From an uncultured Mycobacterium sp. (GTDB lineage: Bacteria; Actinomycetota; Actinomycetes; Mycobacteriales; Mycobacteriaceae): a stretch of DNA of 64,000 bases. Where the stretch lies: the NCBI GenBank assembly GCA_964513475.1, contig CAZEMS010000006.1:34031-98030 (forward strand), in the 5' to 3' direction. The notes beneath the pieces are model-generated. The model did no database searches and had not been told where the DNA came from. It saw only the letters and a list, made by a program, of their open reading frames with translations. This document shows, piece by piece, positions 552 to 5,053 of the stretch. The translations under genes were made by a program, and so were the position numbers. Each line of letters begins with the position of its first letter. The first letter of the stretch is position 1.

Positions 552-614
552 CATTCGACCAGCGGCTCCGCCGTCCCAATCCGCAACAATCCGGCCACTC
601 ACCGCGCTACTTAG

Positions 615-633
615 TTAGCTTTTGCTAACCTTG
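615..633. promoter_or_regulatory. Candidate IdeR/DtxR iron box overlapping a TAACCT -10 of feoA
   Basis: TTAGCTTTTGCTAACCTTG matches TWAGGTWAGSCTWACCTWA at 15/19; ends 66 bp before the feoA ATG. Confidence 0.6.
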
Positions 634-699
634 GTTCGCCCGGTAGGCTTGGCACCGGCCCGCCCGGTGCCCCGCAGGACCGGACCGAAGGAGCACGAG

Positions 700-990
700 A
701 TGGCAACCAGCAATCTACGCCGCTCGCCACGGCGTTCCGGCGGCTCGTCACTACGGGTCAGTCTCGCCGAACTGGCCGCCGGCGCAACCGCCGAGATCGT
801 CGCGTTGGTCCCCACGGCGCCGACCGAACTACTCACCCGGCTAAGACATCTCGGGTTCCGACCGGGAACGCAGATCATCAAGTTGCGCACGGCCCCGCTG
901 GGCGATCCCGCGCTCTACCGACTCCTGGGCTACGACACCTGCCTGCGCCGCCGCGAGGCCGCGTACATCGAAGTTCAACGCGTAGTATGA
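700..990 (+). CDS. feoA: Ferrous iron transport protein A (SH3-like)
   Basis: RLRHLGFRPGTQI..LRTAPLGDP...LRRREA signature; GAAGGAG RBS before ATG 700; stop overlaps feoB ATG (ATGA). Confidence 0.9.
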   Translation: MATSNLRRSPRRSGGSSLRVSLAELAAGATAEIVALVPTAPTELLTRLRHLGFRPGTQIIKLRTAPLGDPALYRLLGYDTCLRRREAAYIEVQRVV

Positions 991-2927
991 CGGCGGCGTG
1001 TCACCACGGCGGAGCCGCGCCCGAGGCTCCCTCGGGCCAGCATCGCATCGCACTCGTCGGCAGCCCCAACGCCGGCAAGACCAGTGTGTTCAACCATCTC
1101 ACCGGAATGCGGGCCCGCACGGGAAACTATCCCGGGGTGACCGTCTCCCGCAGCGTGGGCACCAGCATCACCCGATGCGCGCACGCGACCACGAAGTTCA
1201 ACGTGGAGGATCTGCCTGGCTGTTACAGCCTGAGCCCGATCAGCCCCGACGAGCGGGTCGCCACCGACGTCCTGCACGGCGAACTGCCCGGCATCGCCGC
1301 CCCCGATGCGGTCGCGGTGGTGGTCGACGTGACCGTACTGCGTCGTTCACTGTCGCTGGTCGCCCAGGTCCTGGCGCTCGATCTGCCGACCATGGTGATC
1401 CTCACCATGACCGACGAGCTCGCTATCCGCGGCGGCCGACTGGACGTGGACCGGTTCGCTGCGGCACTGGGTGTGCCCGTCGTCGGCGTGATCGGTAGCC
1501 GCGGAAAGGGTTTCGGTCCGCTGCGGACCCTGCTGGCCGCACCGCAGACCTGGCAGCGCGTGCCCTTCGCCCCGCCGCAAAGAGACGACGAGTTCCACAG
1601 CTGGGTCGACTCGATCCTCCAGACCGGGCAGTACTTGCCGCCGAGTTCGGATCGTCGCACCGCCCGTATCGACCGTTTCCTGCTGCACCCGGTGTGGGGG
1701 TCGTTGTCTTTCCTGGGCGCGATGTTCTTGTTGTTCCAGGTTGTGTTCACGGTCGCCCCGCCGTTGCAGGACCTGATCACCGCGTTCTTCGAGTGGCTGG
1801 GTCCGCTGGCCTCCGAGACGATCCCCAACGACACGTTGGCCGGGTTGGTCGGTGTGGGCATCATCGGTGGCGTCGGCACCGTCCTGGCGTTCATTCCGCA
1901 GATCGTGCTCATGTTCCTGCTGATCGCGCTGATGGAGAACGTCGGCTACATGGCGCGCGCCGCTTTCCTGGTCGACCGTGTGATGGCCTCCGCCGGACTG
2001 GAGGGCCGAGCGTTCGTCGCGATGCTGTCATCGCTTGCCTGCGCAGTGCCCGGCATCATGGCGGCCCGCACGCTGCCGTCGTCGAGGGACCGGATCGCCA
2101 CCGCGATGGCGGCTCCGTTGATGACGTGCTCTGCTCGCTTGCCCGTGTACATCTTGCTGATCGGTCTCTTGGTGGACTCGGACGCGCGCTGGGGACCGAT
2201 CTCGATTCAGGGTGTGGCGATGTTCGGTCTCTACATGCTCGGCGGCGTGACGGCGATGGTCGCCGCGTGGTTGTTCAAGACCGTGATACTCGGGCGCGAT
2301 CTGTTGCCGTTCTACATGGAGATGCCGCCGTACCGGTTCCCGTCGGTCAAGACGGTATTGCTGACGATGTGGGACTCGTCGAAAGCATTCCTGCGCAAGG
2401 CCGGAACCATCATCCTGGCCACCGCGATCATCTTGTGGTTCCTGCTCAACCTACCGTCTCGGACCGCGGAAACCGCGGGGATGACCGACACCGCCGCGAG
2501 CTCCTACGTCGTCGAACACTCCTACGCCGCGTCCATGGGCAAGTTCATCCAGCCCTTCTTCGAACCCCTCGGCTTCGACTGGCGCCTGTGCGTGGCCCTC
2601 ATCGGCGCGATGGCCGCCCGTGAGGTGTTCGTCGCCACGCTCGGCCAGATCTTCGCGGCCAGCAATCCGGAGGCTCCCAGCGAGGCGGTACAGACTGCGG
2701 TGTACACCTCCGGGGCGCATCAGGGCGAACTGTTGTTCACCGCGCCGACTGTGGTGGCCCTCTTGGTGTTCTTCGCCTATGCGCTGTCCTGCATGTCGAC
2801 CGTGGCAACCATCCGCCGGGAGACCAATTCATGGAAGTGGCCGCTGGTCGCGTGGGGCTACATGTTCGTCCTGGCGTGGGTCGGCGCGTTCGTCGCGCGC
2901 CACATCACCATCTGGCTGACCGGTTGA
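987..2927 (+). CDS. feoB: Ferrous iron transporter B (G domain + gate/nucleoside-recognition membrane domain)
   Basis: G1 GSPNAGKT, switch I GNYPGVTV, G3 DLPG, membrane motifs CAVPG, PLMTCSARLPVY, REVFVATL. Confidence 0.93.
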   Translation: MTAACHHGGAAPEAPSGQHRIALVGSPNAGKTSVFNHLTGMRARTGNYPGVTVSRSVGTSITRCAHATTKFNVEDLPGCYSLSPISPDERVATDVLHGELPGIAAPDAVAVVVDVTVLRRSLSLVAQVLALDLPTMVILTMTDELAIRGGRLDVDRFAAALGVPVVGVIGSRGKGFGPLRTLLAAPQTWQRVPFAPPQRDDEFHSWVDSILQTGQYLPPSSDRRTARIDRFLLHPVWGSLSFLGAMFLLFQVVFTVAPPLQDLITAFFEWLGPLASETIPNDTLAGLVGVGIIGGVGTVLAFIPQIVLMFLLIALMENVGYMARAAFLVDRVMASAGLEGRAFVAMLSSLACAVPGIMAARTLPSSRDRIATAMAAPLMTCSARLPVYILLIGLLVDSDARWGPISIQGVAMFGLYMLGGVTAMVAAWLFKTVILGRDLLPFYMEMPPYRFPSVKTVLLTMWDSSKAFLRKAGTIILATAIILWFLLNLPSRTAETAGMTDTAASSYVVEHSYAASMGKFIQPFFEPLGFDWRLCVALIGAMAAREVFVATLGQIFAASNPEAPSEAVQTAVYTSGAHQGELLFTAPTVVALLVFFAYALSCMSTVATIRRETNSWKWPLVAWGYMFVLAWVGAFVARHITIWLTG

Positions 2928-2937
2928 GCGTCTGAAG

Positions 2938-3480
2938 ATGCCCCTCCCTCCACTGCACCCCGAAACCACCGACAATCCTCGGCTGCTGAAGTGGCAGATC
3001 GGAAACCGGTTCCTGCCGACGACACCGCCCCAGATGCTGGAGCTCGTCGGGGAGGGTCTGCTGGAACGGGTGGATACCGCTCCGGGGGAAATACTCACCT
3101 GGTTGGCCGAGAACAGATCCTGGTCAGCCGACGGTCCACGCGTGCGTTCGGCACTGTTAGACGCCCTGCAAGATTCAGCAAGCGCCGCCGAAGAGCTCAC
3201 GGAAGCTCAGCTGCTGCATGAGATCACCGCGATACTCCAGCGGGAGGTGAGCCCGGTCGCGGACTCGCACGGCGGCACCGTGACCGCGCTCTCCGTTCGC
3301 GACGGGATTCTCACCGTGGAGTTCGGCGGGGCCTGCCACGGTTGCGCCGCCAGCGGTAAGACGCTCAGCGACCTGGTGGCTCGCAACGTCCGGGCCCGCT
3401 ACCCACAGATCGAAGAGGTGCGGGCGGTGAGTTCCCGACGGACCTGGCTCCCGCTGTCCATCGGACGTGAACAGGATTAG
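2938..3480 (+). CDS. Nfu/NifU-family Fe-S carrier-like protein (Nfu_N-like + NifU C-terminal domain)
   Basis: N-terminal HPETTDNPRLLKW; C-terminal VADSHGGTV...EFGGACHGCAAS with CxxC. Confidence 0.75.
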   Translation: MPLPPLHPETTDNPRLLKWQIGNRFLPTTPPQMLELVGEGLLERVDTAPGEILTWLAENRSWSADGPRVRSALLDALQDSASAAEELTEAQLLHEITAILQREVSPVADSHGGTVTALSVRDGILTVEFGGACHGCAASGKTLSDLVARNVRARYPQIEEVRAVSSRRTWLPLSIGREQD

Positions 3481-3550
3481 CCGATCCCTTGCCGGACAAC
3501 AACCCTGACCGAACCGCGCCCAAGGCCACGACGAATGGAGAATCTCAAGC

Positions 3551-4069
3551 ATGACGTTCCACGACCTGATGAAGGACCAGATCCGCAGCGAATTCACCGC
3601 CTCCCAGCAGTACGTTGCGATCGCCGTGTACTTCGATGGTGAGGACCTGCCGCAGTTGGCCAATCGTTTCTACAGCCAGGCCGCCGAGGAGCGTAATCAC
3701 GCAATGATGTTGGTGCAGTATCTGCTCGACCGTGACATCGATGTCGAGATCCCCGGTGTGGACGCGGTTTGCAACAGGTTCGACGCCCCCCGCGACGCAC
3801 TGGCGATCGCACTGGATCTGGAACGGGCGGTGACCGATCAGATCGCCAGGCTCGCCAGCGCAGCCCGCGAAGAGGGCGATTACATGGGCGAGCAGTTCAT
3901 GCAGTGGTTCCTCAAGGAACAGGTCGAAGAGGTCGCACTGATGACGACGCTGGTGCGGGTCGCCGACCGGGCCGGCGCGGACCTCTTTCATCTCGAAGGT
4001 TTCGTCGCACGCGAAATCGTCCCCGGGCCGGCCGACCCCAACGCACCGAAGGTCGCCGGCGGAGTGTGA
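3551..4069 (+). CDS. bfrB: Ferritin, BfrB-like
   Basis: EFTASQQYVAIAVYFD, EERNHAMMLVQ and GEQFMQWFLKEQVEEV closely follow mycobacterial BfrB; ferroxidase residues present. Confidence 0.92.
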   Translation: MTFHDLMKDQIRSEFTASQQYVAIAVYFDGEDLPQLANRFYSQAAEERNHAMMLVQYLLDRDIDVEIPGVDAVCNRFDAPRDALAIALDLERAVTDQIARLASAAREEGDYMGEQFMQWFLKEQVEEVALMTTLVRVADRAGADLFHLEGFVAREIVPGPADPNAPKVAGGV

Positions 4070-4091
4070 CCACCCAAACCTGACGGCACGG

Positions 4092-4120
4092 ATCCGGCGG
4101 CGCCCGCATCCGGCGGCGCC
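4092..4120. repeat. 13-bp direct repeat ATCCGGCGGCGCC x2
   Basis: Copies at 4092-4104 and 4108-4120. Confidence 0.85.
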
Positions 4121-4132
4121 TAGGGTTGGCCC

Positions 4133-5053
4133 ATGCGTCTCAAACCCGGCCGACCGGACCTCGCGAGCTATGAGCGCTACTTCGACGTCCCCTGCGCCAC
4201 GACCGAATCCAGGCTGACGGTCACCTGGGCCGGGGTCACCACGCTGGTGGTCGACGACGGCGCATCGGCACTGATGACCGATGGCTTCTTCTCCCGCCCG
4301 GGGCTGATCTCGGTCGGGTTGGGGAAGGTCGCGCCGTCTGTTCCCCGGATCGACGGCTGCCTGGCCCGCCTCGGCGTGGACCGACTCGAAGCCGTGCTAC
4401 CGGTGCACACCCACTACGACCACGCCCTGGACAGCGCCATCGTCACGCAGCGCACCGGCGCCCGACTCGTCGGCGGCGACTCCGCCGCAAACGTCGGGCG
4501 CGGCGGCGGGCTACCCGAGGACCGCATCCTGACACCCGTTCCCGGCGAACCGATCTCACTCGGCGCCTACGACGTCACGTTGATCGACTCCGGCCACTGC
4601 CCGCCGGACCGGTTTCCGGGCCCGATCGCCAGCCCGGTCGTCCCACCGGTGAAGGCCTCCGCCTTCAAGTGCGGCGAGGCATGGTCGACCGTTGTCACCC
4701 ACCGGCCGAGCAACCTGAGCCTGCTAATCGTCGGCAGCGCCGGATTCGTCCCCGGGGCCTTGGCCGGCCAGCGCGCCGACGTGGTCTACCTCGGCGTGGG
4801 TCAGCTCGGTCTGCAGCCGGAGAGCTACCTGGCCGACTACTGGACCGAGACCGTGCGCACCATCGGAGCGAGACGCGTGGTGTTGATCCACTGGGACGAC
4901 TTCTTCCGGCCGTTGCACCAACCGCTGCGGGCCCTGCCCTACGCCGGCGACGATCTCGACGTCTCGATGCGCGTCCTCGCCCGGCTTGCCGGCGAGGACG
5001 GGGTTCGGCTACACCTGCCGACACTGTGGCAACGCGCCGACCCGTGGCAGTGA
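4133..5053 (+). CDS. MBL-fold metallo-hydrolase (Rv3577-like)
   Basis: HTHYDH metal motif; TAGGGT -10 six nt before the ATG (leaderless); synteny. Confidence 0.85.
   Translation: MRLKPGRPDLASYERYFDVPCATTESRLTVTWAGVTTLVVDDGASALMTDGFFSRPGLISVGLGKVAPSVPRIDGCLARLGVDRLEAVLPVHTHYDHALDSAIVTQRTGARLVGGDSAANVGRGGGLPEDRILTPVPGEPISLGAYDVTLIDSGHCPPDRFPGPIASPVVPPVKASAFKCGEAWSTVVTHRPSNLSLLIVGSAGFVPGALAGQRADVVYLGVGQLGLQPESYLADYWTETVRTIGARRVVLIHWDDFFRPLHQPLRALPYAGDDLDVSMRVLARLAGEDGVRLHLPTLWQRADPWQ

Follow-up and report, generated by a model that had tools for sequence, protein, structure and literature searches.

We describe a four-gene iron module at positions 615-4069 of a window of 64,000 nucleotides, the whole stretch of DNA analysed here, from an uncultured Mycobacterium sp. 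(assembly GCA_964513475.1, contig CAZEMS010000006.1). Judging by its sequence, the module is a ferrous-iron uptake operon, feoA-feoB-nfu-bfrB, with one IdeR box in front. The explanation that we find best, with a probability of about 0.65, is that a standard feoA-feoB-nfu core has captured a bfrB gene that lost its control region, and that the resulting cassette is mobile among mycobacteria, repressed by IdeR and co-transcribed, with the NFU-type protein and the ferritin BfrB handling iron.

The module would work as follows. When iron is sufficient, Fe2+-loaded IdeR would bind the box over the -35 element and keep the operon off. At low iron the operon would be transcribed, and FeoA together with the GTPase-permease FeoB would bring in Fe2+. 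A dimer of the NFU-type protein would use its CxxC motif to take the incoming iron as an Fe-S cluster, and would then either hand the cluster on or report the iron and redox status to FeoB. BfrB, made by read-through from nfu, would oxidise and store surplus Fe2+, sparing the cell the toxicity of import. In the organism's own assembly, the best match to salicylate synthase (MbtI, TIGR03494) reached 170 bits against a cut-off of 325, as seen with one query in an assembly that is 96% complete. No salicylate synthase thus exceeded the cut-off, a hint that this organism may lack mycobactin and rely more on Feo.

Gene content and iron box

All four genes are co-oriented on the + strand between pxpA and an Rv3577-like gene, and the family profile scores of all four proteins exceed the curated cut-offs. 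feoA (700-990) encodes 96 amino acids with a FeoA domain (Pfam FeoA 2.2e-15; PF04023, 56.9 bits against a cut-off of 23) and starts with an ATG behind the Shine-Dalgarno sequence GAAGGAG (687-693); an alternative TTG at 622 falls within the iron box. feoB (987-2927) overlaps feoA in an ATGA and encodes a protein of 646 residues composed of a G-domain, two Gate domains and FeoB_C, as recognised by Pfam (FeoB_N 2.4e-42; Gate 1.6e-35 in two stretches; FeoB_C 6.7e-16) and by the equivalog profile TIGR00437 (442 bits; cut-off 316). Ten base pairs further on, nfu (2938-3480) encodes the 180-residue NFU-type protein, with an Nfu_N-like N-domain and a NifU C-domain (PF01106). A gap of 70 bp (3481-3550), containing the ribosome-binding site GGAG at 3537-3540, separates it from the gene of a 172-residue BfrB-type ferritin (3551-4069). 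The module is no assembly artefact, since a sludge metagenome of unrelated origin contains an 859-nt contig that covers 3061-3919 at about 95% identity and so crosses the nfu-ferritin junction, which is also bridged by a contig from an unrelated soil metagenome (91%).

The iron box, TTAGCTTTTGCTAACCTTG at 615-633, is the sole such box in the module and agrees with the degenerate IdeR-box consensus TWAGGTWAGSCTWACCTWA (PMC10317159) at 15 of 19 positions. Only 12 sites as good as this one occur in the whole 4.36-Mb genome, which has both an orthologue of IdeR (E 1e-125 to 1fx7) and a second DtxR-family gene (SirR/MntR-like). The top-scoring box of the genome sits between pheA and an Rv3839-like DUF2470 gene, a classical IdeR target of the M. 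tuberculosis regulon. When the 300 bp before feoA were searched with a threshold of at most four mismatches, boxes were found at 22/58 mycobacterial and 20/32 other actinobacterial loci. Background windows from those loci gave none (0/925 and 0/570, respectively), nor did the regions upstream of acidobacterial and proteobacterial feo loci (0/33). Because of this enrichment over the controls, we consider that the predicted IdeR/DtxR-type box is a conserved feature of actinobacterial feo promoters.

The box of the window overlaps TTGCTA (622-627), the -35-like hexamer of a putative feo promoter (622-649, + strand) that continues with a 16-nt spacer and a -10-like TAGGCT (644-649). We infer this promoter from hexamers read by eye; a strict sigma-70 consensus scan found no promoter, including at 622-649. 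A terminator scan of the module returned a single terminator-like site, inside feoB and at chance level, and the intergenic folds were no better than those of shuffled sequences. A single box is typical of IdeR-repressed genes (PMC10317159). The locus thus resembles members of the IdeR regulon in having a 19-bp inverted-repeat box at a putative promoter, an IdeR encoded in the genome and a box position conserved in orthologous promoters, and the feo operon would be repressed by IdeR.

The preliminary description of this DNA had read the region as feoA, feoB, an Nfu-like gene and a ferritin, co-oriented with small gaps behind an IdeR-like box, and as one unit for iron uptake, Fe-S assembly or sensing, and storage. 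Gene calls and family scores agree with this layout, the consensus match at 615-633 accounts for the box, and all four identities are upheld by family or structure matches. The niches that it suggested for the unit, poor in oxygen or acidic, are ones in which the operon may serve. The same description had treated Feo as out of the ordinary for mycobacteria, a view that has to be given up. Of 200 genomes sampled from the same GTDB genus, 59 have a near full-length FeoB and a few more a broken copy, and feoAB of mycobacteria was reported in 2015 for M. haemophilum (PMC4659460). In non-tuberculous mycobacteria, Feo is no exception but a known and common system. A reduced, single-contig genome of 3.27 Mb from the same genus (G139) holds a feoB pseudogene with many stops beside a remnant of the NFU N-domain (G139:C1:653318-654974, locus L171). 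According to the 2015 paper, M. leprae has no feoAB (PMC4659460); if G139 is a leprosy bacillus, its ancestors had Feo and lost it through decay.

Compared with FeoABC of E. coli and feoAB of M. haemophilum (PMC4659460), the module has the same SH3-like FeoA, the same GTPase-permease FeoB with two Gate domains and FeoB_C, overlapping genes and, by prediction, control by an iron-responsive repressor. It differs in four respects: its third gene encodes a two-domain NFU-type protein and not a winged-helix FeoC, its regulator site is of IdeR/DtxR and not of Fur type, the G4 motif of its FeoB is TxxD and not NxxD, and a ferritin stands as the fourth gene. The G4 motif of the window FeoB is TMTD (1390-1410, residues about 139-142), and its G1 motif is GSPNAGKT. 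The TxxD form occurs in at least 90% of the actinobacterial FeoB sampled, whereas acidobacterial and proteobacterial FeoB have NMxD. Fe2+ is the substrate that FeoA and FeoB would import.

The NFU-type third gene

The C-domain of the NFU-type protein scores 52.5 bits with PF01106 (cut-off 27), and its CxxC consists of C133 and C136. Both cysteines, together with H7, W62 and an HGG motif, are invariant across 55 NFU-type sequences. Foldseek searches with the AlphaFold2 model (predicted local distance difference test score, pLDDT, 92) matched the C-domain to the C-terminal domain of NFU1 (2m5o, E 8e-6) and to CnfU (2z51, E 2.5e-5), and the N-domain to the N-terminal domain of NFU1 (2ltm, probability 1.0, E 0.012); SAV1430-type proteins also match the latter. 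The protein is like NFU1, NfuA and CnfU, late-acting carriers of Fe-S clusters, in its C-terminal NifU domain with invariant CxxC, and possibly in its N-domain, whose model resembles the Nfu_N fold. It differs from them in falling far below the equivalog cut-offs of NfuA (TIGR03341, 44.6 against 269 bits) and NifU (TIGR02000, 29.4 against 273), in an N-domain that found no Pfam match even at E 10, in a SHGG motif of its own with the invariant H7 and W62, and in being found almost exclusively beside feoB. Database names for its homologues go no further than "NifU family protein".

Identity with FeoC was considered for the third gene and rejected: there is no FeoC Pfam match, and the fold is that of NFU1 and not a winged helix. 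At most, the NFU-type protein is a positional analogue of FeoC.

The gene lies directly after feoB at 56/59 mycobacterial and 33/37 other actinobacterial loci, and at none of the 44 non-actinobacterial ones. A profile of the N-domain found 64 places in 62 of 201 genomes, 63 of them directly beside feoB. This profile replaced the co-occurrence of PF01106 with FeoB as a test; because a different NifU-domain protein, of about 300 amino acids, is present in 167 of 200 genomes, that co-occurrence told nothing. That common protein (72-90 bits in the genus) is missing from the assembly studied here. The order feoA-feoB-nfu after a DtxR/IdeR-type box is how the feo operon of Actinomycetota is usually built. 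We found nothing specific on an NFU-type third feo gene, or on IdeR control of actinobacterial feo, in a literature search of limited coverage, so that an earlier description may exist.

Two observations stand beside this pattern. The lone place away from feoB is an orphan nfu-like gene (G170:C152:159500-159784, locus L197) with no feoA or feoB within 5 kb. Three Actinomyces loci (L028, L029 and L040) have a tandem feoA-feoB-nfu-feoA-feoB order, in which nfu follows the first copy only.

The ferritin and its control region

The product of 3551-4069 scores 123 bits with the Pfam Ferritin profile and matches BfrB of M. tuberculosis (3qd8, E 7.3e-80) over residues 2-171, C-terminal extension included; its N-terminus is 8-9 residues shorter than that of canonical BfrB. 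It is the only BfrB-type ferritin of the assembly, which has one bacterioferritin and one Dps besides. The canonical bfrB of relatives is flanked by Rv3840-like and glpQ1-like genes, and conserved IdeR boxes precede it at about -102 and -172. This locus is empty here, and its Rv3840-like and glpQ1-like flanks abut on contig C12. No IdeR box with up to six mismatches was found in the 330 bp upstream of the window ferritin, no TANNNT in the 250 bp before its start codon, and neither of these nor a terminator-like hairpin in the 70-bp gap after nfu. Set against BfrB of M. tuberculosis (Rv3841, controlled by IdeR and Lsr2), the window ferritin is a full-length homologue nested in canonical mycobacterial BfrB. 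It lies outside the Rv3840/glpQ1 locus, has neither the promoter and IdeR boxes upstream nor the first 8-9 residues, and stands directly behind an operon predicted to be IdeR-repressed.

The arrangement is found elsewhere, which bears out the earlier proposal that the four genes form a unit. The closest NFU homologues (65-71% identical) lie on contigs carrying the same four genes, and at least four contexts besides the window, from metagenomes or metagenome-assembled genomes (MAGs), have the four-gene form; three further relatives have the three-gene core only. A 1.6-Mb contig from ENA (L198) encodes FeoB and ferritin that are both 89% identical to those of the window, with 46 bp between nfu and the ferritin gene. 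L206 is the same locus as L198, with a ferritin 87% identical, a gap of 2 bp and FeoB not covered. An NCBI MAG labelled Mycolicibacterium sp. (L201/L202) shows 86% identity for both FeoB and ferritin and again a 46-bp gap, and a 97-kb contig from ENA (L199/L200) shows 82% for FeoB, 79% for ferritin and a gap of 177 bp. A ferritin relocation private to this genome is thereby ruled out, the four-gene form being a feature of the cassette lineage. There is no shared fifth gene: 118-amino-acid open reading frames near several cassettes are not homologous across contexts, and the only ones that match are those of L198 and L206, which are one locus.

All five cassette ferritins group together in a single clade (support 98/96) nested in the canonical BfrB of the window's group in a CysS tree, and the 177-bp gap of L199 can still be aligned with the promoter and IdeR box region of canonical bfrB. 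Because the cassette ferritins are one clade and L199 keeps the bfrB control region, the steps of a capture become visible. A mycobacterial bfrB was acquired once behind nfu, in a sub-lineage of feo cassettes, together with its own control region. The control region and the 8-9 N-terminal codons were then deleted, leaving bfrB tight behind nfu. Its expression would thus probably have shifted from IdeR-activated to feo-linked.

It could also be that the adjacency has no regulatory meaning: a bfrB promoter inside the 3' part of nfu, constitutive or otherwise controlled, would drive the ferritin, and the four genes would travel together as neighbours only. Such an arrangement would fit the normal control of ferritin, which IdeR induces when iron is high (PMC10317159), and the most basal cassette, L199, retains its own bfrB promoter; mycobacterial promoters are, moreover, hard to spot by consensus. 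In the window's sub-clade, however, the gap has come down to 70, 46, 46 and 2 bp, without TANNNT or box, the 250 bp before the ferritin start are equally devoid of TANNNT, no terminator was found after nfu, and the four-gene order has been kept in at least four contexts. We therefore regard an independent ferritin promoter as rather unlikely, and prefer co-transcription of bfrB with the feo genes.

Independently of this lineage, other ferritins lie beside feo in G013/G123, G021 and G055, that of G055 being a distant ferritin. At L118 (8650-9660), L119 and L114, in G013, G123 and G021, a ferritin gene and feoA-feoB-nfu lie together next to dnaG. In G013 and G123 the ferritin gene is upstream of feoA, with tandem IdeR-like boxes before the ferritin but not before feoA; that of G021 is convergent to the feo genes. 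The feo-adjacent ferritin is the sole BfrB-type match in each of these three genomes.

Mobility, inheritance and meaning of the cassette

In the FeoB tree, the window falls in clade A (7 rows, support 100), which contains Mycobacterium only and whose FeoA proteins are 64-73% identical to that of the window. Mycobacterial FeoB forms further lineages in this tree: clade B (38 rows) also has a support of 100, clade C (19 rows) is nested among Rhodococcus, Williamsia and Nocardioides, and there are singletons besides. The preliminary description had proposed acquisition from another actinobacterium. As every one of the nearest FeoB relatives is mycobacterial, a donor of another actinobacterial genus is not indicated; transfer within the genus, from a mycobacterial donor, is the probable course. 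The description's claim of an insertion upstream of the Rv3577/78 backbone agrees with what the slot holds in relatives, and horizontal mobility finds backing in the absence of shared flanks and in the patchy carriers on the CysS tree. It had also allowed for a cluster that is common and vertically inherited: the three-gene core is indeed common in the genus, but the lineage of the window is rare, patchy and not simply vertical.

The left neighbour of the module is pxpA (3-551) and the right one the Rv3577-like gene, of metallo-beta-lactamase fold (4133-5053), with ArsB-like, SpoU and CysS genes beyond. Between pxpA and Rv3577, relatives (L120, L122 and L125) have a CobW/COG0523 GTPase, alternative ribosomal proteins L28, S14 and S18, and a major facilitator superfamily (MFS) transporter. 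Together these resemble a zinc-sparing set, which the genome studied here has on contig C5 (48583-50596) and not in the slot (552-4132). Direct or inverted repeats flanking the module were limited to 12-mers at chance level. The GC content of the module (0.60-0.69, against about 0.70 in the flanks) deviates too weakly to call it foreign. PLSDB contained no related FeoB, its matches being less than 60% identical, mostly proteobacterial, and none actinobacterial among the organisms listed.

Vertical inheritance from an early mycobacterium, followed by many losses and with the differing positions owed to ordinary rearrangement, would be in keeping with nearest FeoB relatives that are all mycobacterial. 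The broken feoB and nfu remnant in the reduced 3.27-Mb genome show that loss is under way, and clade B, confined to one group of the CysS proxy tree, looks vertical inside it. Clade A does not fit this pattern: its carriers occur in all three major CysS groups, and the nearest kin of two of them have no feoB. Clade-A and cassette loci share no flanking genes and lie at a different site in nearly every genome, and one cassette (L199 500-2440 and 9189-12540) is bracketed by genes for a group-II-intron-type reverse transcriptase, DDE transposases, an rve integrase and a mutator-type transposase. Finally, a single mycobacterial FeoB clade is rejected (approximately unbiased test, p-AU 6e-104). We think vertical descent unlikely for this lineage, and favour a cassette that moved as a whole between chromosomal sites and between mycobacterial lineages.

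The least probable alternative, to which we give very little weight, is import of Mn2+ or another divalent metal under the second, SirR/MntR-like DtxR-family regulator instead of IdeR: such a gene is present in the genome and some FeoB paralogues carry manganese, but the box fits the IdeR consensus, the same motif marks the known IdeR target Rv3839/pheA of this genome, the partners, an NFU-type Fe-S protein and a ferritin, are iron proteins, and FeoB exceeds the feoB equivalog cut-off.

Several points weigh against a mobile, IdeR-repressed operon with a captured ferritin, which is nevertheless the reading that we prefer. The sequence shows which genes these are and in what order, that the box is conserved, where the ferritin came from and that its control region is gone; repression by IdeR, co-transcription and the roles of the NFU-type protein and BfrB are deduced from it. 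The iron box departs from the consensus at four positions, and visual inspection gave the promoter hexamers where the consensus scan gave none. Ferritin production at low iron would run counter to the canonical pattern of activation by IdeR, and a promoter inside nfu could still drive the gene. The empty canonical bfrB locus is established for this genome alone among the cassette carriers. One gene, that of CysS, stands in for the species tree, so that many losses could take the place of transfers. NFU-type proteins, in turn, are general Fe-S carriers, and a contact with FeoB is only a proposal.

The module bears on the way in which FeoB passes Fe2+ on in the cytoplasm and on the function of the variable third feo gene. 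Hardly ever found apart from feoB throughout the phylum, the NFU partner points to a specific path by which Feo could supply Fe-S carriers. We tentatively propose, while holding it doubtful, that the NFU-type protein is a dedicated third Feo component in Actinomycetota, which would take Fe2+ at the cytoplasmic face of FeoB and make or sense an Fe-S cluster, thereby wiring uptake into Fe-S supply or gating it, and that in this mycobacterial lineage a ferritin was recruited into the same transcript, with its usual iron-induced control reversed. What would be new is the constancy of the NFU partner and the recruitment of a ferritin into the operon, as both were absent from the literature searched, within its limited coverage. 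In summary, the capture of the ferritin would be a traceable case of rewiring, by which a gene for iron storage seems to have passed, within one regulon, from the arm expressed when iron is replete to the arm expressed under iron starvation.

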